From Polyangiales bacterium (GTDB taxonomy: Bacteria > Myxococcota_A > Polyangia > Polyangiales > Polyangiaceae), in assembly GCA_038231275.1 (NCBI GenBank), contig JBBRLQ010000004.1, positions 320,001-384,000 of the forward strand: a DNA stretch of 64,000 nt, written 5' to 3'. This document shows, one piece after another, positions 4,816 to 16,372 of the stretch. Position 1 is the stretch's first letter, and each line of letters starts with the position of its first letter. Made by a program: the position numbers and the translations under genes. The notes beneath the pieces were generated by a model. It saw only the letters and a program-made list of their open reading frames with translations. It was not told the origin of the DNA and ran no database searches.

Positions 4816-4946
4816 CCACTTTCCTATACCGCGCTCGCCCGGCCAGGTGAGCGCAAAACGAGGGGGGCCCGGTGGTCCGACCCCACGGCAACCATGCGCA
4901 TTTGCGTAGGCACTCGGGCGAAAACTCGACTACGTATGAGGAGAAG

Positions 4947-5246
4947 ATGAGCGACAAGCGCTCCCCGAATGACTCGGTTACTTCCGGCGACACGTCGCCC
5001 GGCGCGATCCCGCACGTCTTGAGCGACGCCGACGTGACCAAGCTATGGGACCGCTTCAAGGGGGGCTTCGTGGTCCGATGCCCGAAGGACGACGCGCCGC
5101 TGGCACTCGCCGTCGACGGCGCCGCCAAGAGCTACCGCCTCGTGTGCACGCGATGTGGAAACGCGTCGCTCTGGTTCGAGACCAACGGCGGCGTCATCCA
5201 AGTGCGCAACGCCGACGAGCCCGTCGGCCCCGGCGCCGACGACTGA
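4947..5246 (+). CDS. Small putative zinc-ribbon protein
   Basis: GAGGAG RBS before ATG 4947; CPKD...CTRC pair; 99 aa. Confidence 0.6.
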   Translation: MSDKRSPNDSVTSGDTSPGAIPHVLSDADVTKLWDRFKGGFVVRCPKDDAPLALAVDGAAKSYRLVCTRCGNASLWFETNGGVIQVRNADEPVGPGADD

Positions 5247-5298
5247 ATCGAAACGCGACTTGCGTCGCGGCTGAAACCGCGCGCGCCGCGTAGCCACC

Positions 5299-5346
5299 TT
5301 GACAGGATCGTCCGTCGTACCCAAATAGAGTACTAGATACTCTTTT
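5299..5346 (+). promoter_or_regulatory. Sigma70-type -35 (TTGACA) plus candidate NrtR operator
   Basis: TTGACA at 5299-5304. Palindrome AGAGTA-CTAGA-TACTCT at 5327-5343 contains GT-N7-AC and lies 12 bp before the operon's first ATG. Confidence 0.7.
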
Positions 5347-5355
5347 CGAGGTACG

Positions 5356-6138
5356 ATGTCATACCCCCTCCCCCCCTCCAACTTCGCCGCGCTCGGCGGC
5401 TCCGTGATCGGAAGCGATCATCGGCGCGCGCTGCGGAACAATCAGGACGGCCTCGCGTTCGCGAGCGACGACGGCTTCATCGTCGCCGTCGTGACCGACG
5501 GGTGCTCGTCGGGGCGGGCCAGCGAGGTCGGCGCGCGGCTCGGCGCGGCGTACCTCGCGGCGCGGACGCTCGACGTCGCTCCCCGCGCGCTGGACGCGCA
5601 GGCGACGGCGTCGAGCGTGGCGGCGGCGGTGACGGAATGGTTGGACGATGTCGCCTCTGCGTTCGGCGCGCGCCGAAAAGACGCGATCGCGGACATGCTC
5701 CTCTTCACGTTCCTCGTGGCGGTCGTCGGCCCCACGCGCGCGTTCGTCTTCGGCGTCGGCGACGGCGTCGTATCACTCAACGGGCTCACCCTGGCGCTCG
5801 ATGCCGGGCCCGACAACGCGCCCGCCTACGCCGCGTACGGTCTCCTCGGCGCCGCGCCGCCCCCGATCGTCCACGTCGACGTCCCGACGCCGCTCGTCCG
5901 CTCCCTCGCCATCGCGACCGACGGCGCCCTCGATCTCCTCGCGCGCGCCGACGAAGCGCTCGACGGCGGCGCCCCGCAGCGCGGGCTCGACCAGTTCGAG
6001 GACGATCCCGTCTACCTCAAGAACCCGTCGCTCCTCCAGAAGCGCCTCGTCGTCATCGGCGAGCGCAACGCTCGACTTCGGGACGACACGACCGTCGCCC
6101 TCGTACGCCGAAGGGATGTGCCGCCGTGCGTGTCGTGA
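5356..6138 (+). CDS. PP2C-family protein phosphatase (TerY-P triad type)
   Basis: SVIGSDH..NNQD, VVTDGCSSG..SEVGA, GVGDG, IATDG and DDTT metal-binding motifs. Confidence 0.85.
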   Translation: MSYPLPPSNFAALGGSVIGSDHRRALRNNQDGLAFASDDGFIVAVVTDGCSSGRASEVGARLGAAYLAARTLDVAPRALDAQATASSVAAAVTEWLDDVASAFGARRKDAIADMLLFTFLVAVVGPTRAFVFGVGDGVVSLNGLTLALDAGPDNAPAYAAYGLLGAAPPPIVHVDVPTPLVRSLAIATDGALDLLARADEALDGGAPQRGLDQFEDDPVYLKNPSLLQKRLVVIGERNARLRDDTTVALVRRRDVPPCVS

Positions 6139-7871
6139 TCGAAGGAGAGCTGGTCACGCTCGACGACGCGTCGATCCTCGGACAAGGAGGAGAGGGGCGC
6201 GTCTACCGACTCGGCGCCCGCGCCGTGAAGATCTTCCACGCAATCTCGAAGGAGAAGGCGCAGAAGCTCGAGGCGTTTCCTCGCGGCCTCCCGCGCGGCG
6301 TCGTCGCGCCGATTCATCTCGTGCGCGATCCGAAGAGCGACGCGATCGTCGGCTACACGATGGAGCTCGTGGCCGGCGCGACGGACGCGATGCGCCTCTC
6401 GTCGCGGCGCTTCCGGCAGGGGGCCATCAGGAACGACGTCGTGTGCGCCATCCTGCGACGCTTGCACGCGCTGGTCGGGCAGGTCCACGCGCGCGACGTG
6501 ATCGTCGGCGACCTGAACGACGGCAACGTGGTCTTCACCGGCACGCAGCCGTGGCTGATCGACACCGACTCGATGCAGCTCCGCGGGCACCTCTGCACCG
6601 TCGCGCACGAGCGCTTCCTCGACCCTCGCCTCTTCGGCGCCGATCTCACGCGCGCCCCGGCGTTCGACGCGGCGAGCGATTCGTACGCGCTGGCGGTCAT
6701 GGCGTTCGCGAGCCTCCTCTACGTTCACCCGTACGGCGGCCAGCACAAGACGATCCCGACGATGCTGCGCCGCGCCGAGGCGAGTCACAGCGTGCTGCGG
6801 TCCGACGTCGCCTACCCGCGCGCCGCGACGCCGTTCGCGGTCCTCACGGACGATCTCCTCCATCATTTTTCTCGGACGTTCGATCACGGCGCGCGCTCTC
6901 CGATCTCCGAGGCGCTGCTCTCGCCGCGCTGGACGACGTGCTCGTGCGGCATCGAGCACGCGCGCGTGAAGTGCCCCGTGTGCGCGACGCGGGCGCACGT
7001 GCCGGGTCCGGTCGCTGCAGGGGTTCGCGTCATGCGTGTCTTCGCCACGAAGGGGCGGATCGTCGCGGCGGCCGTGCAGGGCCGCGTCCTCGCGTACGCA
7101 CACGTCGACGACGCCGACGTTCTCCGTCGGGAAGACGGTATCGCGATCCCCGTCGCCCTCTCGCCCACGGCGCGCGTGAGGATCGCCGGCGCCAGCACGT
7201 GGATCCACGACGGCGGCGTCGCTGTCCAGGTCGTGCGCGGCGAAATCGTCCTACGCGCCGAGGCTGCGGCGATGGGTGCCGGCCTCGCCGGCGTGTTTCT
7301 GGCCAACGGTGACTGGCTCACGGACGCCACCACCACCGCGCGGGTAGGGCAAGTCCTCGCGGGGACCACCTGGCTCGAGGTCGGCGATCGCTTCGGCGTC
7401 GGCTTCTACCGCGCGGGCGCCATCACGGTCGGGTTCGTCGTTCGCCCCGGGCGCGGAATGCTCCGCGTGGAGCTGCCGGTCATTCACGGGCGCCTCGTCG
7501 ACGCGTCGGTCACGTTCGACGGCGCGCGCGCCCTCCTCGGCATCGCCACCGAGACGGGCGGTCACGTCTCTCACGCGCTCCACGTGGTGCAAGACGACGG
7601 CGAAATCCTCGCACGCGCCAGCGGCTCGCCCGAGTCGCGTCCGCTCCTGGCGAGCGTCTTCGGCAAGTGCATGGCTGGCGGCGCGATCGTCTCGGCCACC
7701 GACGATGGGCTCGTCCTCGCGCGTCCCGATCTCGCGACCGGCGATCTCGAAGAGACCCGCACCTTTCCCGCGACGCGCGATTTCGTCGCCGCGGGCGTCG
7801 ACATCCTTGCGGGGCCGCAGGGCTCCGTTTACCTCGTCCAGACGGGCGAGATCCTTCAGCTCACCATTTGA
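6126..7871 (+). CDS. Atypical Ser/Thr protein kinase with Zn ribbon and beta-rich C-terminal domain (TerY-associated type)
   Basis: LGQGGEGRVY, AVKIF, VGDLNDGN, IDTDS; CSC..H....CPVC. GTG 6126 overlaps the PP2C stop. Confidence 0.85.
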   Translation: MRVVIEGELVTLDDASILGQGGEGRVYRLGARAVKIFHAISKEKAQKLEAFPRGLPRGVVAPIHLVRDPKSDAIVGYTMELVAGATDAMRLSSRRFRQGAIRNDVVCAILRRLHALVGQVHARDVIVGDLNDGNVVFTGTQPWLIDTDSMQLRGHLCTVAHERFLDPRLFGADLTRAPAFDAASDSYALAVMAFASLLYVHPYGGQHKTIPTMLRRAEASHSVLRSDVAYPRAATPFAVLTDDLLHHFSRTFDHGARSPISEALLSPRWTTCSCGIEHARVKCPVCATRAHVPGPVAAGVRVMRVFATKGRIVAAAVQGRVLAYAHVDDADVLRREDGIAIPVALSPTARVRIAGASTWIHDGGVAVQVVRGEIVLRAEAAAMGAGLAGVFLANGDWLTDATTTARVGQVLAGTTWLEVGDRFGVGFYRAGAITVGFVVRPGRGMLRVELPVIHGRLVDASVTFDGARALLGIATETGGHVSHALHVVQDDGEILARASGSPESRPLLASVFGKCMAGGAIVSATDDGLVLARPDLATGDLEETRTFPATRDFVAAGVDILAGPQGSVYLVQTGEILQLTI

Positions 7872-7904
7872 CGCATCATCTGAAACCGACCGGAGGTAAA
7901 CGCC

Positions 7905-8876
7905 ATGACTCTTCCCATCCCCGCGATCTACGAAAAGAAGCTGGTCTCGGAGGTCTACATCGAGCGCGCGAGCGTCGTCGCCGATCTCGCCGAGGAGCAC
8001 GCCAAGAAGTACGGAGTGCTCCCTGCCGCGCAGGACAAGTTCCGCATCTGCGCGTTCGGCATCGACGCGCAGGTCGGCTTCTGCACGCCAGGCGCGAGCC
8101 TGTTCGTCCCCGGCGCGGTCGAGGACACCGATCGCGCGATCCGTTTCATCTACCAGAACCTCGACAAGATCACGGCGCTCCACTTCTCGATGGACACGCA
8201 CCGCGTCTTCCAGATTTTTCACCCTGCTTTCTGGATCGACGCGCATGGCAAGCACCCGGGGCCCTTCACGCCGATCTCGCATGAGGACGTGAAGACCGGG
8301 AAATGGCAGCCGATCAGCCATCCAAAAGAGGCGCTCGAGTATACGAAGAAGCTCGAGACGAGCGGCAAGTACACGCTCAATGTGTGGCCCTACCACACGC
8401 TGCTCGGCGGCCTATCGCACGCGCTCGTGCCGGCTCTCATGGAGGCGTCCATCTTTCACGCGGTCGCGCGGCGCCACCAGACGCACTTCGAGACGAAAGG
8501 GACCCACGCGATGACCGAGAACTACTCGGTCCTGTCGCCCGAAGTGCAGGAGCTCGGCGGCAAGGCGGTCGGCGGCTTCAACACGGCGTTCTTCCGGATG
8601 CTCATGGAGTACGACCGCATCTACGTGTACGGGCAGGCCAAGTCGCACTGCGTGCTGTCGACGCTGAACGACATGCGCGATCACATCCGCTCCGTGGATC
8701 CCGCGCTCATGGACAAGGTGTGGATCCTGGAGGACGCGATGAGCCCGGTGCCGGCGCCGCCCATCGATCCGCTACCTCCGTCGCTCGACTTTCCGAAGAT
8801 CGCCGAGCGCGCCATCGCCGACCTTGCCCGCGCGGGCATGCACGTCGTCAAGACCACCGATCCCATCGTGATTTGA
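7905..8876 (+). CDS. Isochorismatase-superfamily cysteine hydrolase, nicotinamidase (PncA)-like
   Basis: IDAQVGFC (Asp), MDTH and WPYH (metal ligands), TKG (Lys), GQAKSHCV (Cys nucleophile); GGAGG RBS. Confidence 0.8.
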   Translation: MTLPIPAIYEKKLVSEVYIERASVVADLAEEHAKKYGVLPAAQDKFRICAFGIDAQVGFCTPGASLFVPGAVEDTDRAIRFIYQNLDKITALHFSMDTHRVFQIFHPAFWIDAHGKHPGPFTPISHEDVKTGKWQPISHPKEALEYTKKLETSGKYTLNVWPYHTLLGGLSHALVPALMEASIFHAVARRHQTHFETKGTHAMTENYSVLSPEVQELGGKAVGGFNTAFFRMLMEYDRIYVYGQAKSHCVLSTLNDMRDHIRSVDPALMDKVWILEDAMSPVPAPPIDPLPPSLDFPKIAERAIADLARAGMHVVKTTDPIVI

Positions 8877-8890
8877 GAAGGAGCAACGCC

Positions 8891-9685
8891 ATGACGACAT
8901 CCACGGAAATTGCGGAGATTCAGGCACTCCTCTCGAACGCCCAGGCCGCCGGCACGATCGGCGCGGCCACGTCCTATGCGCTGTCCGGTCACCTCGGCGC
9001 GGTCGTCGTCGCGGGGGCGGCGGGGCTCGCGATGGAAGACATCGCGTCGAGCGATGTGACGCTCGTGACGGTCCTCATCGACGCGTCGTCGAGCATCCAT
9101 TCGCGCGGGCTCGAGGACGCGGTGCGTGAGGGGCAGAACCTCCTCGTCGACGCGTTCGACAAGGCCAAGGAGAAGGACAGCGTGCTCATGGCGCTTTGGA
9201 CCTTCAACGACGAGCTCCGGGTTCATCACGCGTACGTGCCGGTCGACACGTGCAGCCGCCTCGATCCGTCGACGTACGCCGGCGTCGGCGGCACGCGCCT
9301 TTACGACACGTGGTGCGACGCGCTCGCCGCGAACGTGGCCTACGCGCAGCGCCTTCGCGACGGAGGAACACCGTGCAAGAGCGTGGTCGTGGTGATCACC
9401 GATGGCGAGGACTGCGGCTCACGGAGGACCGCGAAGGACTGCGAGAAGCTCAGTCGCGAGCTGCTGGCCAGCGAGCAGTTCACGCTGGCATTCGTGGGCG
9501 TGGGCAGCGACGTGGACTTTCGCGCGGTCGCCAAGCGAATGGGCGTGCCGGACGGGAGCGTCGCGGTGCAGGCCAACACGTCACCTGCGGCGCTGCGGCA
9601 GATGTTCCACATGGTGAGTCAGTCGGCGATCCGCGCGAGCCGCGCCAACGTCACGCCGGGCGGCACGGGCTTCTTCGGTCCGTAG
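8891..9685 (+). CDS. vWA domain protein (TerY-like)
   Basis: MIDAS motif: LIDASSS, GGTRLYD, VITDGED; AAGGAG RBS. Confidence 0.85.
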   Translation: MTTSTEIAEIQALLSNAQAAGTIGAATSYALSGHLGAVVVAGAAGLAMEDIASSDVTLVTVLIDASSSIHSRGLEDAVREGQNLLVDAFDKAKEKDSVLMALWTFNDELRVHHAYVPVDTCSRLDPSTYAGVGGTRLYDTWCDALAANVAYAQRLRDGGTPCKSVVVVITDGEDCGSRRTAKDCEKLSRELLASEQFTLAFVGVGSDVDFRAVAKRMGVPDGSVAVQANTSPAALRQMFHMVSQSAIRASRANVTPGGTGFFGP

Positions 9686-9726
9686 ACGTCGCGAAGGGCC
9701 GCCGGCATCGGGTATGGTGACGGCGC

Positions 9727-10446
9727 ATGTCGACCTCGGAGAGGAAGTTCCTCGCGGCCTACCGCCCCGGCCGCTTTCCCAGGCCGGCGGTGACGGTGGA
9801 CGTCGTCGTCTTCACGCTGCGCGACGCGGTGCTCCAGGTGCTGCTCGTTCAGCGCGGCGAGCACCCCTTCAAGGGGCGCTGGGCGATCCCGGGGGGCTTC
9901 GTGCGCGTCACCGAGGAGCCGGCCGATCAAGGAGAGGATCTCGACGCCGCGGCTGCGCGCGAGCTCGAGGAGGAGACGGGCCTCGGGACGCGCGCGCACA
10001 GCCTGCCGCTCGAGCAGCTGCGCGCGTTCGGCGCGGCGGGGCGCGATCCTCGGATGCGTGTCATCAGCGTCGCCTACTACGCGCTCGTCACGCCCGATCT
10101 CGCGCCGCTCGTTCGCGCCGGCGGCGACGCAGCGCACGCGGCGTGGCACCCGATCGAAGCCGCGCGCCTGCTGCCCCTCGCGTTCGATCACCGCGACATT
10201 CTCGAAGCCGCCACCGAGCGTCTCCGCACCGACATCGACAGGCTCGCCCGCGCGCTCGTGCCCGAGACCTTCAGCATCGCCGAGCTGCGCGCGGTCCACG
10301 AGGCCGTGCTCGGTCGCGCGCTCGATCCGGGCAACTTTCGGAAGCGCGTTCTTCGCATGCTCGAAGACCGCGTCCTCGAGACTGCGCCGGGCAAACGGGT
10401 CACCGCATCGAAGCCCGCCCGCGTCTACCGCTTTGCCAAACGGTAA
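9727..10446 (+). CDS. nrtR: NrtR-family transcriptional regulator (Nudix + winged HTH)
   Basis: PAVTVDVVVF, WAIPGGFV, AARELEEETGL, GRDPRMRVISVAY, LAFDH; C-terminal FSIAEL..LDPGNFRKR..KPARVYRF. Confidence 0.85.
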   Translation: MSTSERKFLAAYRPGRFPRPAVTVDVVVFTLRDAVLQVLLVQRGEHPFKGRWAIPGGFVRVTEEPADQGEDLDAAAARELEEETGLGTRAHSLPLEQLRAFGAAGRDPRMRVISVAYYALVTPDLAPLVRAGGDAAHAAWHPIEAARLLPLAFDHRDILEAATERLRTDIDRLARALVPETFSIAELRAVHEAVLGRALDPGNFRKRVLRMLEDRVLETAPGKRVTASKPARVYRFAKR

Positions 10447-10478
10447 TTGGTTACCACTTAAGTGGTAACCAGGTTACC
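10442..10478. promoter_or_regulatory. Cluster of GGTAAC/GTTACC half-sites including a perfect 24-bp palindrome
   Basis: TGGTTACCACTTAAGTGGTAACCA at 10448-10471, overlapping GGTAAC-CAG-GTTACC at 10464-10478. Confidence 0.7.
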
Positions 10479-10550
10479 TTTTAGACCGCGTAAACTATCG
10501 ACAACATGTTTGGATCGCTTCCTGCGTAGAGCTGGCGCGGAGGCGTTCAA

Positions 10551-11993
10551 ATGGTAACTTATGGTCACGGTGCATCCTCGATCCTCGTGCTCGGCGGTCT
10601 CTTCGCGGTGGCGTGCGGTACGCTCGCGCCCATCGGATCGGACCCTTCTCACGCGGCCGCTCAAGACCCCGACGCGTCCATCCCCGCCACGGCGACCGTG
10701 CCCGGCGCGTACATCCCCGGCTCGACGACGCCCGAGGCGAAGTACCCGGGCCACGGCTTCATCGTTCACGAGTGGGGGACGAACACGATCGTCGTCGGCT
10801 CCGACGGATCGGTGCAGCGCGGCCTTCACCACGAAGAAGAAGACCTCCCGGCCTTCGTTTACGACCGCATCAAGGCGGGCGGGGTGACGGGCTCGGTGGA
10901 AGTGAAGATGGAGACGCCTGTCCTCTACTTCTATTCGGACGCTGCGCTCGACGCCGAGGTCCAGGTGTCGTTCCCCGCCGGCGTGATGACGCAGTGGTAT
11001 CCGTCGGCGCGCGGCTTCACGCCGATGCTGGCGGACATCGCAGGGAGCGTCGTCGATCCGGTGATGGACCCGAAGTTCTCGCCGAAGCTCGACGCGTGCA
11101 TCCAACGGTTCTCCGACGGCAAGGCGATTGAAAACGGGCAGCTCGACTGGGGCACCGTGCACATCGGCGCGCGCACCGATCGCCTGACCGCGCCCGACGC
11201 GCCGCTCGCCCAGTACACGTGGAGCCACGCCCGCGCGGTCGACGCGAACCCGCTGCGCGTGCAAAAGCCCGGCGCGGCCGTCGACCACGAGGAGGAGCGC
11301 TTCCTCTTTTACCGCGGCCTCGGGAACTTCGCGCTGCCGGCGCGGATCACGAGCGGCGGACCGGGCTCGTACGAGGGGAGCGGCGTTTCGATCCTCGATC
11401 GCGACGGCGCCAACCCGCTCGGGTCGACGTTCGTGCTCGACGTCGGCGCGACCTCGGCCAAATTCGCCGTTCACCCGGAGGGGCTCGCGGCCAGCCACGG
11501 CGCGCTGATCGAGTCGCTCTCTGGCGCGACGTCGATGCCGCTCGACGCGTACGCCGACGCGCTCGCGGCCGCGATGACCGCCGAGCTCGACAAGACGGGG
11601 CTCTACCACGACGAGGCCGTGGGGATGGTGAGCACGTGGCGTCGTCAGTGGTTCCGGACGCCGGGCCTTCGCGTCCTCTACTTCGCGCCGCAGGCGTGGA
11701 CCGACACGCAGATCCCTCTCGCCATCACGCCGAAGCCCGATCGCATCACGCGCGTCATGGTGATCCGCACCGAGGTGATCACGACGGAGCTCGAGTGGGT
11801 CGACGTCGCGGCGGTGCGCGGGATCAACGCGGGCGACGCGACGGCGACGGCGCATTTCGACGGGCTCGGGCGCTTCGCGGAGCCTCGTCTGCGACGCGCG
11901 CGTCAGCTCGTTGGCGACGCGGGGCCGTCTGCTGCGGCGACGCTGCTCGCGAAGATCTCCGGCGCGAACACCACCCTCGGTACCGGCGAATGA
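10551..11993 (+). CDS. Hypothetical lipoprotein
   Basis: Lipobox LFAVA-C; motifs HEWGT, METPVLYFYS, TQWYP, FLFYRGLG, GLY.DEA. Exact start uncertain. Confidence 0.75.
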   Translation: MVTYGHGASSILVLGGLFAVACGTLAPIGSDPSHAAAQDPDASIPATATVPGAYIPGSTTPEAKYPGHGFIVHEWGTNTIVVGSDGSVQRGLHHEEEDLPAFVYDRIKAGGVTGSVEVKMETPVLYFYSDAALDAEVQVSFPAGVMTQWYPSARGFTPMLADIAGSVVDPVMDPKFSPKLDACIQRFSDGKAIENGQLDWGTVHIGARTDRLTAPDAPLAQYTWSHARAVDANPLRVQKPGAAVDHEEERFLFYRGLGNFALPARITSGGPGSYEGSGVSILDRDGANPLGSTFVLDVGATSAKFAVHPEGLAASHGALIESLSGATSMPLDAYADALAAAMTAELDKTGLYHDEAVGMVSTWRRQWFRTPGLRVLYFAPQAWTDTQIPLAITPKPDRITRVMVIRTEVITTELEWVDVAAVRGINAGDATATAHFDGLGRFAEPRLRRARQLVGDAGPSAAATLLAKISGANTTLGTGE

Positions 11994-14900
11994 CGGCGAG
12001 CGCCCCTCCCCTTCGCCTCGATCACCCGCGCTACGAGGCGGGCGAGGCGCTCGGGCAGGGCGCGCAAGGTCACGTGCTGCGCGTGCGCGACCGGGAAAAT
12101 CCTGGGCGCGCGCTCGTCGCGAAGGTGCTGCGGGGAGCGGCAGAGGGGTCGCTCGACGCCGAGTTTGCGCTGCTCGCGAGGCTCCGGATCGAGGGCCTCG
12201 CGCGCGCGCACGACCTGGCGCGCGACACGTCGAGCGGGGTCCTCTTCTTGGTCGAGGACTTCATCGACGGGCCCGACGCGGCCCGCCACGTTGCGGCGGA
12301 GCCGACGCCGGCGTCGAAGAACCGCGCGCTGGCGCGCATCCTCGCCGATCTCGCGCGGACCCTCGGCGCGCTCCATGAGGCGGGGTTCGTGCACGGCGAT
12401 CTCAAGCCCGAGCACGCGCGCGTGACGCCCGCGCGGACGATGCTGCTCGATCTGGGCGCGGCGATCGCGCGGACGGGCGATGCGCGCCCGGAGATGGTGA
12501 CGCGCGCGTACGGCGCGCCCGAAGTGCTCGCGGGAGGCGCGGCGTCTCCCAGCGCCGACCTCTTCGGGCTCGGCGCGCTCGCGTGGGGCGTCGCGACGGG
12601 AAGGCCGCCGCGCGGGGGCACCGGCGCGCTGCGTGACCACGCGCCATGGGTCGCACCGAGCCTCGCGGCCACGATCGAAGCGCTGCTCGCCGCGCACCCC
12701 GCCGACCGACCTCGCTCCGCGAGCGAAGTGCTCGCGCGACTCGGCGCGTGCGTCGATCTCGGCGCATGGCAGGCGTCGTCGGGCGCGCCGGCGGGGCGCG
12801 CGAGAGAGTGGGCCGAGGCGGCGCGCAACCGCGCGCACGTCCTCTACGTGACCGGCCCTTCCGGCGCGGGAAAGAGCCATCTGGTGCGGGAGCTCGTCGC
12901 GACGACGCTCCTCGAAGGTCGCCCCGCGCGTGCGTTGGCGTTTCCGAGCGAGGACGGTCGTCTGCTCCCGCGCCTCACGGCGTTCTTCCGAGGAGAGCGC
13001 GACGCGTTTCCGTTTCACGTCGCCGATGGCGGTGGCGGCGTCGGGGAGCCAGTCCTGCTCGTCCTCGACGATCTCGACGCGGCGCGCCCGGAGGTCCGTA
13101 CGGCGCTCGAGGCTCTGCGTTGCCGGGGCGGTGATCCGCTCGTCCGCGTCGTCGCGACGTGCCGCCGCGCGCCGAGGGGTGCGATCACGCTGGAGCTGGC
13201 GCCGCTCGCGGCAGATGCGTTCGAAGAGCTCGCCGTGAGCATGGGTGTGCCGGCGGACGAGGCGCGCGCGCTCCATACGTCGTGCGAAGGCCTGCCCGGC
13301 TGGCTCGTCGCCGCGCGCGGTCGCGTGCCGTTGACGCGCGACACGGCGCTGGCGCGGACGAAGTCGCTGTCGACCGACGCGCGAGATCTCCTCGCGGTGA
13401 TCGCGCTGCTCGGTGGGGAGGCCACGCGCGCGCAGCTCGCACGATCGACGACGCTCGAAGTGTTTGCGCCGCTCGCCGAGCTCGCTCGTGCCGGGCTCGT
13501 CTCGCGGCGAAGGGCCGAAGGCGGTCAAGAGGAGGCGAACGCCACGCTCGCCTCGCCGGGAATCGCGCGGGATCTCGCCGCCGCGCTCTCGACCTACGAT
13601 CTCGCCGATCGAGCGGCGGAGGCGGCGCTGGGAGACGGCGTGCCGGCCGCGACGCTGCTCTCGGTCGCGCTTTGTCCGACCCCTCCGCGGCGCCGCGCGG
13701 AGCTGCTCGCGGCCGCCGCGACGCGCGCGCGCGCCACCGGAGCGCGAAGTGACGAGCTCGACGCGCTGCTCGCGTCGGCGGCCGATCCGGCGGCGCGGAC
13801 TGCTCCGCTGCTCCTCCGCCTCGAACGCCTCACGCGCGATCTCGGCGCCGCGAACGCGCATCCGCAAGTTCTGGTCTGGCTCGATGCGCTCGGCGACCAG
13901 GACGCAAGCGTCCGTCCGCTCGCGCTTCGCCGTCGCGCCGAGGCGAAGGCGCGGGCCGGAGCCGCAGACGACGCGCGCGCGACGGCGGCGCTCGCCCGCG
14001 AGGCCGCAAGGGCGCGCGGGGACGCGGCGCTCGAGGCGCTCTCTCTGGCGACAGCCGGGGCGGTGGCGCTGTTCCGCGCGGACTGGCCGGAGGCGGAGCG
14101 CGCGCTGATCGAAGCGCGATCCCTGGCGTCCGCATTTCCGCCCGACGATCCCGAAGAGCTCGCGCGGCTCGATCACAACCTCGGGGTCGTCCTCTTGTAT
14201 CGGAACCGTCACGCCGAGGCGGCGCACGCGTTCGAGCGCGCGTTGGCGGTGAAGCGCGCGCTCGGAGATTCGGCGGGCTGCCGCGCGTGTCTCCTCAACC
14301 TCGGGCTCGCGTGGACGCGCGAGGGGCGATTCGAGGAGGCCGAGCGCGCGCTGACCGAAGCCACGCTCCTCGCGGAGTCGCTCGAGCAGACGACGGGACG
14401 CGCGTGGACGCTCGCCGCGCGCGCGGATCTCGAGATCCGGCGGCGCCGACCGCGCGACGCCGAGCGCTTCACTGCAGAGGCCGAGGCGTCCAGTGACGCG
14501 CTCCCGCCGGCCGTTCGCGCGGACCTCGCGCTGCTGCGCGCGGAGATCGGGCTCGAGGACGGGGATGGTCGGGCCGCGCTCGCGGCGCTCGATGCGCTCG
14601 ATACGTCGCTGCGCGCCGACGACGCGCTGATCGACGCCCGCGCGCACGTCCTCACGTCCCGCGCGTTCATGGCCATGGTGCCTCCCGAGCCGAGACGCGC
14701 GGCGCGAGCTGCCGTCGCCGCGCTTCGGCGATCGCGCGAGGCCGCCCTCGCCGAGCAGGAGGCCGCCGCCGCGATCGCCCTCACGCAGGCGCGCACGCGC
14801 GCGCGATCGGCCGCGCGGTGCTACGAAGCGCGTGCGATGCCGGTCTCCGCCACGCCCGCTACGCCGTCGACCCCTCGCGACGCCCCGCTCTGGGCGTGGC

Positions 14901-16372
14901 TCGTCGAGCTCGGCAACGGCGCGCCGGTCGACGGGGCGGGAACGTCGCTCGCGCTCGCCATCGTCCGCGCCGCCGGAGCGGAGCGCGCGTTCGTCGCGGT
15001 CGTCGGGAATGACGGCGCGGTGCGCGTGGCGTGGGGCGCCGATCTCGATGGGCTACCCCTGCAAGACGCCAAGGATCGAATCGACGCCGCGGCGCTCGCC
15101 GGCGCGCTGCGCGCGGAGGGGCCTCTTTACCAACGCAACGTCGAAGGCCCCGCCGGCACCGGCTCGCGCTTGGCGATCGCGTCCCGCGGCGGCGATCCGC
15201 GCGCGGTCGTCGTCGTCGAGCATCGGTTCGCCCCCGCGCGATTCGACGGCGTCGATGGGGAGCTCGCGTCAAGGTGGGGGACGATGGCTTCGGTCCTCGC
15301 GCGGACCCACGCGAGCTCCGCAAGCCCCACATCCACGAGCGGCGGCGGCCTCAGCGCCGTCACCCAATCTTCTCGCATGCCCGTCTCCGCGGCGCGCGAG
15401 CTCGAGTCGAGCTCCGCGCCACTCCGAGAGGCGCGACGCGAGTATCCGACCATCCTCGGCGAGAGCCGCGTCCTCCGCCGTGCGCTCGCCCGCCTCGACG
15501 CGGCGGTCGACAGCGATCTGCCCGTCCTCTTGACCGGCGAGACCGGCACCGGCAAGGAGGTCTTTGCGCGCGCGCTGCACGATCACGGCGCGCGCGCTGG
15601 CCGACCCTTCGTGGCGGTGGACTGCGCGTCGCTCCCCGACGCGCTCTTCGAGGCGGAGCTCTTCGGCCACGCGCGCGGATCGTTCACCGGGGCCGAGCGC
15701 CCGCGCGCCGGACTCTTCGCACGCGCCGGCGAGGGGACGCTCTTCCTCGACGAGGTCGGCGAGCTCCCACTCCAGAGGCAGGCGTCGCTTCTGCGCGTGC
15801 TCGAGACGCGGCGTTTTCGCGCCGTGGGGAGCGACGAAGAGCAGACGTTCTGCGCGCGCGTCGTCGCGGCGACGAACCGGGATCTCGAGGAGGCGGTCCG
15901 CGCCGGGACCTTCCGGCAAGACCTCCTCTATCGTCTCAGGGTCCTGGACGTGACCGTCCCTGCCCTTCGCGCGCGCGCGGACGATATCCCGATGCTCGCC
16001 GCCGCGTTCCTCGCGCGCGCGGGCAGCGACGGGACGCTGGCGCCCGACGCCGTGGACGCGCTCACGGCGTACGCGTGGCCCGGGAACGTCCGCGAGCTGC
16101 TCCATCACATGCAGCGCCTCGCCGCCGCGGGCCTCGAGCGCGTCGAGATCGAGCACCTCCCGCGCGATCTGCGCGGCGCGATCCCGCTTCATTCGCGGCG
16201 TGACGACGCCTCGCGCGAGTCGCGGGAGCGCGCCGAGGTGACGCGCGCCCTCGCGGCGACCGGGGGAAACATCACCCACGCCGCCGCGCGCTTGGGGCTC
16301 ACGCGTCACGGCCTCAAGAAGCGAATGTTGCGGCTCGGCATGCGCGCCGCGCTTCCGGTTGGTAAGAGATAG
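11990..16372 (+). CDS. Multidomain sigma54-dependent enhancer-binding protein: kinase - P-loop ATPase - TPR - GAF-like - sigma54 AAA+ - Fis HTH
   Basis: GQGAQG, HGDLKPEH, DLG; GPSGAGKS, LVLDD; TPR-like helices (HNLGVVL, LNLGLAW); GETGTGKE, GSFTGA, LFLDEVGE, WPGNVREL; NITHAAARLGL. ATGA overlap at 11990. Confidence 0.85.
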   Translation: MTASAPPLRLDHPRYEAGEALGQGAQGHVLRVRDRENPGRALVAKVLRGAAEGSLDAEFALLARLRIEGLARAHDLARDTSSGVLFLVEDFIDGPDAARHVAAEPTPASKNRALARILADLARTLGALHEAGFVHGDLKPEHARVTPARTMLLDLGAAIARTGDARPEMVTRAYGAPEVLAGGAASPSADLFGLGALAWGVATGRPPRGGTGALRDHAPWVAPSLAATIEALLAAHPADRPRSASEVLARLGACVDLGAWQASSGAPAGRAREWAEAARNRAHVLYVTGPSGAGKSHLVRELVATTLLEGRPARALAFPSEDGRLLPRLTAFFRGERDAFPFHVADGGGGVGEPVLLVLDDLDAARPEVRTALEALRCRGGDPLVRVVATCRRAPRGAITLELAPLAADAFEELAVSMGVPADEARALHTSCEGLPGWLVAARGRVPLTRDTALARTKSLSTDARDLLAVIALLGGEATRAQLARSTTLEVFAPLAELARAGLVSRRRAEGGQEEANATLASPGIARDLAAALSTYDLADRAAEAALGDGVPAATLLSVALCPTPPRRRAELLAAAATRARATGARSDELDALLASAADPAARTAPLLLRLERLTRDLGAANAHPQVLVWLDALGDQDASVRPLALRRRAEAKARAGAADDARATAALAREAARARGDAALEALSLATAGAVALFRADWPEAERALIEARSLASAFPPDDPEELARLDHNLGVVLLYRNRHAEAAHAFERALAVKRALGDSAGCRACLLNLGLAWTREGRFEEAERALTEATLLAESLEQTTGRAWTLAARADLEIRRRRPRDAERFTAEAEASSDALPPAVRADLALLRAEIGLEDGDGRAALAALDALDTSLRADDALIDARAHVLTSRAFMAMVPPEPRRAARAAVAALRRSREAALAEQEAAAAIALTQARTRARSAARCYEARAMPVSATPATPSTPRDAPLWAWLVELGNGAPVDGAGTSLALAIVRAAGAERAFVAVVGNDGAVRVAWGADLDGLPLQDAKDRIDAAALAGALRAEGPLYQRNVEGPAGTGSRLAIASRGGDPRAVVVVEHRFAPARFDGVDGELASRWGTMASVLARTHASSASPTSTSGGGLSAVTQSSRMPVSAARELESSSAPLREARREYPTILGESRVLRRALARLDAAVDSDLPVLLTGETGTGKEVFARALHDHGARAGRPFVAVDCASLPDALFEAELFGHARGSFTGAERPRAGLFARAGEGTLFLDEVGELPLQRQASLLRVLETRRFRAVGSDEEQTFCARVVAATNRDLEEAVRAGTFRQDLLYRLRVLDVTVPALRARADDIPMLAAAFLARAGSDGTLAPDAVDALTAYAWPGNVRELLHHMQRLAAAGLERVEIEHLPRDLRGAIPLHSRRDDASRESRERAEVTRALAATGGNITHAAARLGLTRHGLKKRMLRLGMRAALPVGKR

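Follow-up and report, generated by a model that had tools for sequence, protein, structure and literature searches.

The salvage of nicotinamide adenine dinucleotide (NAD) through PncA and PncB is textbook knowledge, and its control is thought to be mainly transcriptional. In this work we analysed a 64,000-nucleotide stretch of DNA from a Polyangiales bacterium (contig JBBRLQ010000004.1, positions 320,001 to 384,000; called the window below), which carries a five-gene operon for a PP2C-type phosphatase, a Ser/Thr kinase, a nicotinamidase-like cysteine hydrolase (the amidase), a von Willebrand factor A (vWA) protein and an NrtR-family regulator. The parts of this operon resemble systems that have been described before. 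In NrtR regulons (nrtR-pncA-pncB; Rodionov et al. 2008, PMC2330246) the operator is palindromic and measures about 21 bp, and most of the NrtR motifs have GT-N7-AC as their core. By its published definition (PMC11090510) the TerY-P triad brings together a TerY-like vWA protein, a PP2C and a Ser/Thr kinase whose C-terminal part holds a Zn ribbon, and the characterised relative by architecture is yegL-pphC-yegI of E. coli, where the substrates of the YegI kinase are unknown (bioRxiv 10.1101/819920). The closest published concept is that of Iyer et al. 2022 (PMC9503650), in which systems centred on an ADP-ribosylglycohydrolase (ARG) and equipped with Nudix-helix-turn-helix (HTH) or WYL regulators, phosphatases and vWA chaperones are predicted to act against viral ADP-ribosylation.

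The present operon joins the known NrtR salvage regulon with a TerY-P-type triad, and what is described here are its Myxococcota versions, the beta-propeller of its kinase, syntenic variants that lack the triad, and the sharing of its operator with genes of the poly(ADP-ribose) glycohydrolase (PARG) and ADP-ribosylglycohydrolase (ARH) families. We read the operon as encoding a nicotinamide salvage enzyme that would be derepressed through NrtR and gated by a TerY-P-type phospho-switch, a reading to which we assign a probability of roughly 0.55. This suggests a previously undescribed control layer on NAD recycling in a soil or sediment myxobacterium. No description of a nicotinamidase-vWA-PP2C-kinase cassette under NrtR was found in the literature searched; Anantharaman 2012 and de Souza & Aravind 2012 lie outside that search and might mention such neighbourhoods. 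The features of the operon, with the basis of each assignment in brackets, are:

5299..5304, + strand: TTGACA, a -35-like hexamer (direct reading)
5327..5343, no strand: candidate NrtR operator, a perfect palindrome whose core is GT-N7-AC (direct reading, conservation)
5356..6138, + strand: PP2C-type Ser/Thr phosphatase, 260 amino acids (aa) (PF13672, conserved metal-binding Asp)
6135..7871, + strand: Ser/Thr kinase with Zn ribbon and beta-propeller, 578 aa (alignment, AlphaFold2 (AF2) model, Foldseek)
7905..8876, + strand: long nicotinamidase-like cysteine hydrolase of isochorismatase fold, 323 aa (Foldseek, VIA, invariant residues)
8891..9685, + strand: vWA protein with a complete metal ion-dependent adhesion site (MIDAS) motif, 264 aa (PF00092, alignment)
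9727..10446, + strand: NrtR-family regulator with Nudix domain and winged helix, 239 aa (NUDIX, NrtR_WHD)
10447..10482, + strand: intrinsic-terminator-like hairpin of 11 pairs (10447-10472) with a T-rich tail (terminator scan)

All five genes lie on the + strand between 5356 and 10446, as obtained from the open reading frame (ORF) calls and from direct reading of the junctions. From PP2C through kinase, amidase and vWA to nrtR there is an overlap of 4 nt followed by gaps of 33, 14 and 41 nt, the kinase start being a GTG within the GTGA that overlaps the PP2C stop. These coordinates and junctions agree with a first-pass annotation made from the sequence, which had claimed five co-directional genes with overlaps or gaps of at most 41 bp, and the catalytic motifs it had named for the PP2C, the kinase, the amidase (D/K/C), the vWA MIDAS and the Nudix-winged-helix regulator are all present and conserved. 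The terminator-like hairpin follows directly after the nrtR stop codon and is the sole site of this kind on the + strand between 4800 and 10800. A sigma-70 promoter scan returned no promoter, with no -10 box matching the TTGACA at 5299, and because of this the promoter at that position is a putative one. The best explanation for the layout is a single predicted transcription unit running from the promoter/operator region (5299-5343) to the terminator (10447-10472). A filter on third-position G+C content (GC3) picked three of the five operon frames, and the kinase and vWA frames are supported by homology instead. The G+C content in the window is 66-76%, the genome comprises 9.28 Mb in 164 contigs and is 94% complete, and the nearest protein relatives come from metagenome-assembled genomes of Myxococcota.

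The PP2C matched PF13672 with E = 1.2e-15 (58.1 bits against a cut-off of 24), and R24, Q30, D31, D48, G49, D136, D189, G190, D243 and D244 were retained in at least 95% of 57 sequences, including the metal-binding aspartates of the PP2C fold (D31, D48, D136, D189, D243 and D244). In the kinase the GxGGE loop, K32, GDLNDGN (D126, N131) and IDxDS (D143) were invariant in 27 sequences, at least 90% of which also keep the CxC..CxxC Zn ribbon (C269, C271, C280 and C283). The kinase domain (residues 1 to about 255) and the ribbon are followed by a C-terminal all-beta domain (295-578) with about seven four-stranded blades. Kinase domain, ribbon and propeller are all found in the AF2 model (pLDDT, its predicted score in the local distance difference test, 91.0), for which Foldseek placed LRRK2 kinase-WD40 structures first, followed by CK2, AMPK and the WD40 proteins Fbw7 and U3-55K. 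The Pfam Pkinase model misses this protein; its family matches were weak (TCAD9 1.4e-4, LanL kinase region 2.2e-9, Bud32), and so were those to PDB sequences (E at least 0.06). The vWA protein matched PF00092 (7.4e-8) and its MIDAS residues D64, S66, S68, T135 and D171 were invariant in 24 sequences.

The operon therefore contains the vWA protein, the PP2C and the kinase with a C-terminal Zn ribbon that make up the TerY-P definition (PMC11090510), in agreement with the TerY-P-like architecture proposed at the outset. The same three parts with intact catalytic or MIDAS residues link it by architecture to YegL, PphC and YegI. It differs from both systems in its gene order, PP2C-kinase-X-vWA, where X is an enzyme gene that separates those of kinase and vWA, and in the beta-propeller that the kinase adds after the Zn ribbon. 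YegI is a membrane protein (bioRxiv 10.1101/819920), whereas no membrane segment was noticed in the kinase studied here, for which no dedicated prediction was made. A further difference from TerY-P lies in the surroundings, as no tellurite-resistance or restriction/DNA-processing genes were found near the operon among the neighbours in the window, and the neighbours in the relatives are pncB-like, extracytoplasmic function (ECF) sigma and glnS-like genes. For the comparison with defence models that the first-pass annotation had suggested, a PADLOC search at E ≤ 0.01 gave matches to four models (PDC-M21C, PD-T4-6, MkoA and PDC-S07), all of them weak (best E 2.8e-4) and none named TerY-P, and nothing for the amidase or the vWA protein. 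TerY-P models are presumably included in the PADLOC library.

The isochorismatase-like fold of the amidase can be regarded as settled at the level of the predicted structure. All nine Foldseek matches at E ≤ 1e-3 (7e-6 to 1e-3) were nicotinamidases (2wta, 3v8e, 2h0r, 2wt9, 3r2j, 1ilw), and VIA-align gave Z-scores of 10.5-12.7 to isochorismatase-like cysteine hydrolases over model residues 44-323. Across 19 members with identities down to 34%, residues D54, Q56, F59, D97, H99, W161, P162, H164, K198, G199 and C249 were invariant. These include the Asp-Lys-Cys triad D54, K198 and C249, in which D54 and K198 are presumed to be catalytic from the resemblance of their motifs, as well as D97, H99 and W161-P162-x-H164, which may correspond to the Asp/His/His metal site that distinguishes nicotinamidases within the family, with H164 located in a low-confidence segment of the model. 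Distant members read LLIDVQKDFC, MDTH, LWPPHCLLG and AGQAxSHCV, presumably the triad and metal-site motifs of PncA, and the subgroup to which the window amidase belongs has WPYHT as against WPPHC in the distant relatives. Among 8000 candidates scored, 2884 proteins were related to the amidase at E ≤ 1e-3, and the names given to such relatives at source are "nicotinamidase-related amidase" (JGI) and "nicotinamidase" (NCBI). When 1.84 billion cluster representatives were searched with the profile, 3813 clusters were obtained at E ≤ 1e-3, of which 1318 were at E ≤ 1e-30, and the family is therefore large. The 27-bit cut-off of PF00857 is exceeded by two relatives, namely P0122 with 42.7 bits and P0260 with 29.9 bits; others fall below it, with matches at both ends of the profile, and the window amidase does not reach the gathering score.

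Taken together with the modelled structure, these sequence features indicate that the amidase is probably a nicotinamidase-type enzyme converting nicotinamide to nicotinate, and the salvage context given below (a pncB-like gene upstream and pncB-amidase-nrtR operons that lack the triad) adds to this assignment. With PncA/Pnc1 (2wta, 3v8e, 3r2j, 1ilw, 3o93 and 9u8m) it shares the isochorismatase-like fold, the Asp-Lys-Cys triad and the genomic pairing with nicotinate phosphoribosyltransferase (NAPRTase), and its D97, H99 and H164 may take the place of the Asp-His-His residues that bind the metal in PncA. It differs in that the identity in structural alignments is about 11-22%, in a 44-residue N-terminal extension and an insertion of about 60 residues that have no counterpart in the short solved enzymes, and in that this subgroup escapes PF00857 and is (nearly) always packaged with vWA and kinase genes. 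In a Corallococcus strain with a pncA homologue in its genome, feeding with nicotinamide raises nicotinate-containing myxochelins (PMC8400222), which by analogy is compatible with an active nicotinamidase in this group of bacteria, the pncA homologue not being tied to the window amidase.

Unusual domain combinations were seen among the amidase relatives. The protein P0225 (1629 aa) joins ankyrin repeats to an ion-transport (channel) domain and to five segments that match the profile of the amidase, and it might be a channel in which a nicotinamidase-like domain serves as the sensor. In P0125, P0129, P0134, P0135, P0140 and P0142 (583-613 aa) the amidase domain is preceded by some 250 N-terminal residues for which Pfam gave no match.

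To what extent the genes stay together was examined in 67 related loci, 51 of which had enough DNA on both sides. PP2C, kinase, amidase and vWA were found in that order in 51 of these 51 loci. With the near-identical locus L001 excluded, the median identity to the window protein was 69% for the amidase (66 loci), 62% for the vWA protein (62 loci), 42% for the kinase (62 loci) and 40% for the PP2C (58 loci). The regulator gene was inside the retrieved locus in 13/67, and L001 ends in a further, partial copy. Of the five-gene co-occurrence suggested in the first-pass annotation, the four-gene part thus holds throughout and the nrtR part holds within the locus in 13 of 67 cases. NrtR orthologues with 59-63% identity were present in all five of the relatives' genomes that were checked, and in the three Myxococcaceae genomes among them nrtR is found 8-9 kb downstream of vWA and points the same way. 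The notion that NrtR is absent from the Myxococcaceae versions was accordingly rejected, nrtR being non-adjacent but near. An ECF-sigma-like gene flanks the operon in 33 loci.

A wider comparison was made with 301 genomes taken evenly from the phylum and an amidase threshold of E ≤ 1e-20, from which 31 loci in 30 genomes were compared (G302 and the genome of the window itself, G000, were left out). The arrangements found were:

PP2C-kinase-amidase-vWA, with an amidase that is 37-43% identical in most: 9/31 loci
amidase-vWA-kinase, with a short amidase (about 265 aa) and no PP2C found with the queries used: 10/31 loci
pncB-like-amidase-nrtR: 5/31 loci
pncB-amidase: 1/31 loci
amidase-nrtR (L107 and L116): 2/31 loci
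amidase with neither triad nor pncB or nrtR partners: 4/31 loci

The nrtR gene was within the locus in 16 of the 31, and all ten vWA relatives at E < 1e-45 in the sample adjoin an amidase gene. The amidase-nrtR pairs in L107 and L116 adjoin a homologue of a 124-aa ORF that precedes the operon in the window, and L107 also has a homologue of the window's short-chain dehydrogenase/reductase (SDR) gene. These two loci are syntenic and yet triad-less, so that the triad is a module which has been added to, or dropped from, a core of amidase and nrtR. The idea that the triad gates the amidase is based on three features of these data: the amidase gene stands between those of the kinase and the vWA protein in 51/51 loci, the pairing of amidase and triad persists over deep divergence and a changed gene order, and strong vWA relatives are never apart from the amidase (10/10). 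That a nicotinamidase travels with kinase, phosphatase and vWA genes over such a distance (37% to 90% amidase identity, two gene orders) would imply a post-translational control of nicotinamide removal.

The regulator has the Nudix and winged-helix domains of the NrtR family (PF00293 NUDIX, 1.9e-20, residues 24-160; PF21906 NrtR_WHD, 2.8e-13, residues 177-236; both above the cut-offs), and by these domains it is classed as a family member and not as a called equivalog. The candidate operator AGAGTACTAGATACTCT at 5327-5343 is a 17-bp palindrome of the form AGAGTA-CTAGA-TACTCT located 13 nt 5' of the PP2C start codon; NrtR would be the protein that binds it and ADP-ribose the likely effector. 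When similar sites were searched for in the relatives (at most two mismatches, core required, -250 to +40 of the first operon gene), a site was present at the first operon gene in 44/56 relatives with upstream DNA. The background was four palindrome matches in 633,932 nt of other locus DNA, two of which are upstream of pncB-like genes in L030 and L062 that the adjacency rule had missed. The site in Myxococcaceae is AGAGTC-TTGAC-GACTCT and thus contains a -35-like TTGAC. A conserved GT-N7-AC palindrome at the promoter agrees with the NrtR control that had been proposed for the operon.

As in the regulons of Rodionov et al. 2008 (PMC2330246), a Nudix-winged-helix repressor is combined with a GT-N7-AC operator at the promoter, the targets belong to nicotinamide salvage, and nrtR lies in or near the regulated operon. 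What differs is that kinase, PP2C and vWA genes are embedded around a long, divergent amidase missed by Pfam, and that PARG and ARH genes have the same operator. The words Myxococcus, deltaproteobacteria, phosphatase and von Willebrand are all absent from the main text of PMC2330246.

In one of the related loci (L024, 8747-10123) the gene directly downstream of nrtR encodes a 459-aa fusion of an N-terminus resembling nicotinamide mononucleotide (NMN) adenylyltransferase and a class I S-adenosylmethionine (SAM) methyltransferase.

The genome was scanned with the window palindrome alone as seed, allowing at most one mismatch per arm. Besides the operon, the two best sites sit at the 5' ends of the only two PARG-family genes of the genome: the site at C1:528937 ends at the ATG of the sole PF10021 microbial PARG gene, and that at C37:58538 overlaps the 5' end of the sole PF05028 PARG gene, which is followed by an MFS transporter gene. 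By our own arithmetic the number of such co-locations to be expected by chance is about 5e-4. A weight matrix from the three sites gave them scores of 27-30 bits and the next site 19 bits; this comparison is circular and shows only that the three sites stand apart. In the genome of a relative (G003), five exact palindromes were found as against none for the reversed control, and these were upstream of the pncB-like operon, of a gene for an ADP-ribosylglycohydrolase (PF03747), of one for a DUF4291 protein, of a pair of SPFH and NAD-kinase-like genes, and of one unknown gene. The single PARG gene of G005 and the ARH gene of G001, which is orthologous to that of G003, also have a site upstream, and G004 has one exact palindrome with no clear adjoining gene. 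Since the operator is common to the operon, the PARG genes and the ARH genes, a link to ADP-ribose and NAD is supported, and the ADP-ribose theme of the first-pass annotation has been strengthened by the sites at both PARG-family genes here and at PARG and ARH genes in relatives.

A genome-wide enrichment in palindrome number was also considered and was rejected, as 20 matches were obtained against 6-33 for control patterns. With the raw count inside the control range, it is only the placement of the palindromes that is telling.

The ARG-centric systems (PMC9503650) resemble this arrangement in having a Nudix-HTH repressor that is presumed to sense ADP-ribose and controls ADP-ribose-releasing hydrolases, in the vWA protein as a presumed peptide-binding partner, and in a coupled phosphatase. 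They differ in that they centre on an ADP-ribosylglycohydrolase within the operon and have rhodanese-, calcineurin- or HD-type phosphatases, whereas here the PARG/ARH genes are at separate loci and the enzyme of the operon is an amidase. The words nicotinamidase, PncA and PP2C do not occur in the main text of PMC9503650.

The form AGAGTC-N5-GACTCT (in G003 and G001; loci L078, L079, L081, L082 and L085) is also found upstream of four further gene sets, namely DUF4291, SPFH/Band7 with an NAD-kinase-like gene (in both genomes), a 2-oxoglutarate-Fe(II) (2OG-Fe(II)) oxygenase with an ornithine-cyclodeaminase-like gene, and an unknown 398-aa ORF.

No pncB, nadV or nadE gene lies beside the operon in the annotated part of the window, as had been noted before. 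The two NAPRTase-family genes of the genome are on other contigs (C1 and C6), and the step after the amidase is therefore encoded elsewhere. On C1 a second NrtR paralogue (43% identical) is directly upstream of the NAPRTase gene. In 41/67 related loci a divergent pncB-like gene of the NAPRTase family (TIGR01513 7.5e-33, below the cut-off; PF04095 7e-5) is located directly upstream of PP2C, and 8/31 loci of the phylum sample are plain salvage contexts without the triad (pncB-amidase-nrtR, pncB-amidase or amidase-nrtR). The earlier argument that this is not an ordinary salvage operon, since pncB is not adjacent, is not supported, as it holds in this genome alone. The second NrtR gene is situated between genes for an ArsA-like ATPase and the NAPRTase (C1 336026-339152, L073 7026-10152), and upstream there is a candidate palindrome GTGT-N7-ACAC, which has the GT-N7-AC core and is different from that of the operon.

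In the mechanism that we propose, NrtR would keep the operon off by binding the palindrome that overlaps the promoter. When NAD is used by ADP-ribosylating or NAD-cleaving enzymes, free ADP-ribose would rise, partly through release by the two PARG-family enzymes with the common operator, and NrtR would leave the DNA. The amidase would then turn the co-product nicotinamide into nicotinate, and NAPRTase would return the nicotinate to NAD (the Preiss-Handler route); this enzyme would be supplied here from elsewhere, from the gene beside the second NrtR, and in most relatives from the pncB-like gene directly upstream. Kinase, phosphatase and vWA protein would add a control after translation, gating the amidase itself or a complex that includes it, where the propeller could be the input domain and the MIDAS of the vWA protein might bind a phosphorylated or acidic partner. 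Should this be true, Ser/Thr signalling would be tied to bacterial NAD and ADP-ribose homeostasis, and the widespread, functionally opaque TerY-P-type triads would gain a concrete client enzyme that can be assayed; the interest of the locus lies in this testable client and in a new control point in NAD recycling. The operator sharing with PARG and ARH genes would mean that NrtR regulons reach beyond NAD synthesis and take in the undoing of ADP-ribosylation, which bears on NAD-depleting immunity and on phage ADP-ribosyltransferases. A more far-reaching version, which we put forward tentatively and consider rather doubtful, is that the operon and the PARG/ARH genes form an ADP-ribose-triggered circuit policing the ADP-ribosylation cycle. 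In it PARG and ARH would remove ADP-ribose from their targets and thereby induce the regulon. The kinase-PP2C-vWA module would then decide when the nicotinamidase destroys nicotinamide, the product inhibitor of sirtuins, ADP-ribosyltransferases and NADases, and through the propeller it would read a signal, protein or metabolite, of NAD attack or of developmental ADP-ribosylation. The circuit would be for bacteria what the Pnc1-Sir2 axis is for yeast, with control by phosphorylation.

A number of results weigh against reading the operon as a gated salvage enzyme under NrtR. The window amidase had no match in Pfam (E ≤ 0.01), in NCBIfam or among PDB sequences, where single-sequence and profile searches gave chance matches. 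Its model is of moderate confidence (pLDDT 74.8), and the segments below 50 (57-67, 163-174 and 199-223) cover or adjoin H164 and K198. In the VIA-align comparison the nicotinamidases were tied with maleamate amidase, RutB, biuret hydrolase and others, because of which nicotinamide is a presumed substrate. In a weak hhalign match (E = 0.062) C249 falls on the Cys motif of an isochorismatase of the same genome that is validated by Pfam, and the assignment of D97, H99 and H164 to the PncA metal site is a tentative one, made from their resemblance to its DxH and WPxH(C) motifs. The NrtR protein scored 168.8 bits against NF050029 (1.3e-49, residues 2-237), which is below the 400-bit equivalog cut-off. 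As to the operator, 12/56 relatives have no site at up to two mismatches, an exact palindrome was not found in the G002 and G005 genomes, only 2/12 ARH loci examined have a site, and the number of matches in the genome is not above that of the control patterns. The distribution of the genes is a further point, since the amidase is patchy (32/301 genomes of the phylum sample) and the triad is not obligatory (12/31 loci lack it). Finally, the gating step is a proposal drawn from gene context.

The hydrolase could instead act as a cysteine amidohydrolase on some other amide, or serve as a scaffold without catalysis, with the triad controlling other chemistry and the nearby NAD genes being a loose association. 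In favour of this are that the window protein lacks a family-model match, that the fold Z-scores do not part nicotinamidases from the other hydrolases, and that the protein has an extended N-terminus, a long insertion and WPYHT in place of WPPHC; but the Foldseek matches are exclusively nicotinamidases (9/9), the invariant D54, K198, C249, D97, H99 and H164 resemble the PncA triad and metal site, the gene adjoins NAPRTase-family genes or NrtR in most lineages, and the annotations at source read nicotinamidase, so that we find such an explanation improbable. The triad might also be an independent signalling module with targets elsewhere that shares the amidase promoter and leaves NAD salvage uncontrolled. 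Ser/Thr kinases are numerous in myxobacteria, with one large example next door at 11219-16372, the related YegI of E. coli still has no known substrates (bioRxiv 10.1101/819920), and contact between triad and amidase is deduced from gene context. An independent module would not be expected to enclose the amidase gene between kinase and vWA in 51/51 loci, to keep the pairing at 37-43% amidase identity and in the amidase-vWA-kinase order, and to have its strong vWA relatives never away from the amidase (10/10), and we consider this the least probable of the explanations discussed.

It has also to be considered that the operon is a defence or counter-defence module, in which the triad senses phage, an NADase or an ADP-ribosylating toxin and the nicotinamidase works with the PARGs to restore NAD or to clear away nicotinamide, the whole acting as a stand-alone immune system. 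Protection from phage is known for TerY-P-like triads whose kinase has an OB fold (Gao 2020, cited in PMC11090510), and Nudix-HTH regulators, ADP-ribosylglycohydrolases and vWA "chaperones" are predicted in systems proposed to counter viral ADP-ribosylation (PMC9503650). The operator sharing with PARG/ARH genes fits the ADP-ribosylation theme, and the patchy occurrence of the amidase (32/301) is also in favour of such a role. On the other hand, no nuclease, TIR, SIR2 or other effector was found in the operon, its neighbours are ordinary (SDR, sigma-54 activator kinase and MATE pump), and its chromosomal position is stable, with the ECF-sigma-like gene flanking 33 loci. Amidase and vWA protein are slow-evolving (medians of 69% and 62%), unlike typical conflict genes, triad-less versions occur within plain pncB-amidase-nrtR operons, and the PADLOC matches were weak (best E 2.8e-4) and lacking for amidase and vWA. 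Stable synteny, slow change, an ordinary neighbourhood and weak PADLOC matches lean against mobile defence DNA only, and a defence role is possible but disfavoured compared with the gated salvage enzyme.

The neighbours of the operon in the window are the SDR gene, genes for proteins without assigned function, the gene of the sigma-54 activator kinase and that of the MATE pump. Just 5' of the operon is the 124-aa ORF (4872-5246, + strand), which has no Pfam match and is followed by a hairpin at 5254-5269; homologues of this ORF flank amidase-nrtR or PP2C genes in L001, L029, L067, L107 and L116. On the 3' side there is a 480-aa ORF (10551-11993, + strand) with a hydrophobic N-terminus and no Pfam match, which in the relatives is not kept beside the operon. 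It is overlapped by an ORF of 1717 aa (11219-16372, + strand; start codon provisional), in which a Ser/Thr kinase domain is joined to a STAND-like NTPase containing TPR repeats, to an AAA+ domain of the sigma-54 interaction type and to a Fis-type HTH.

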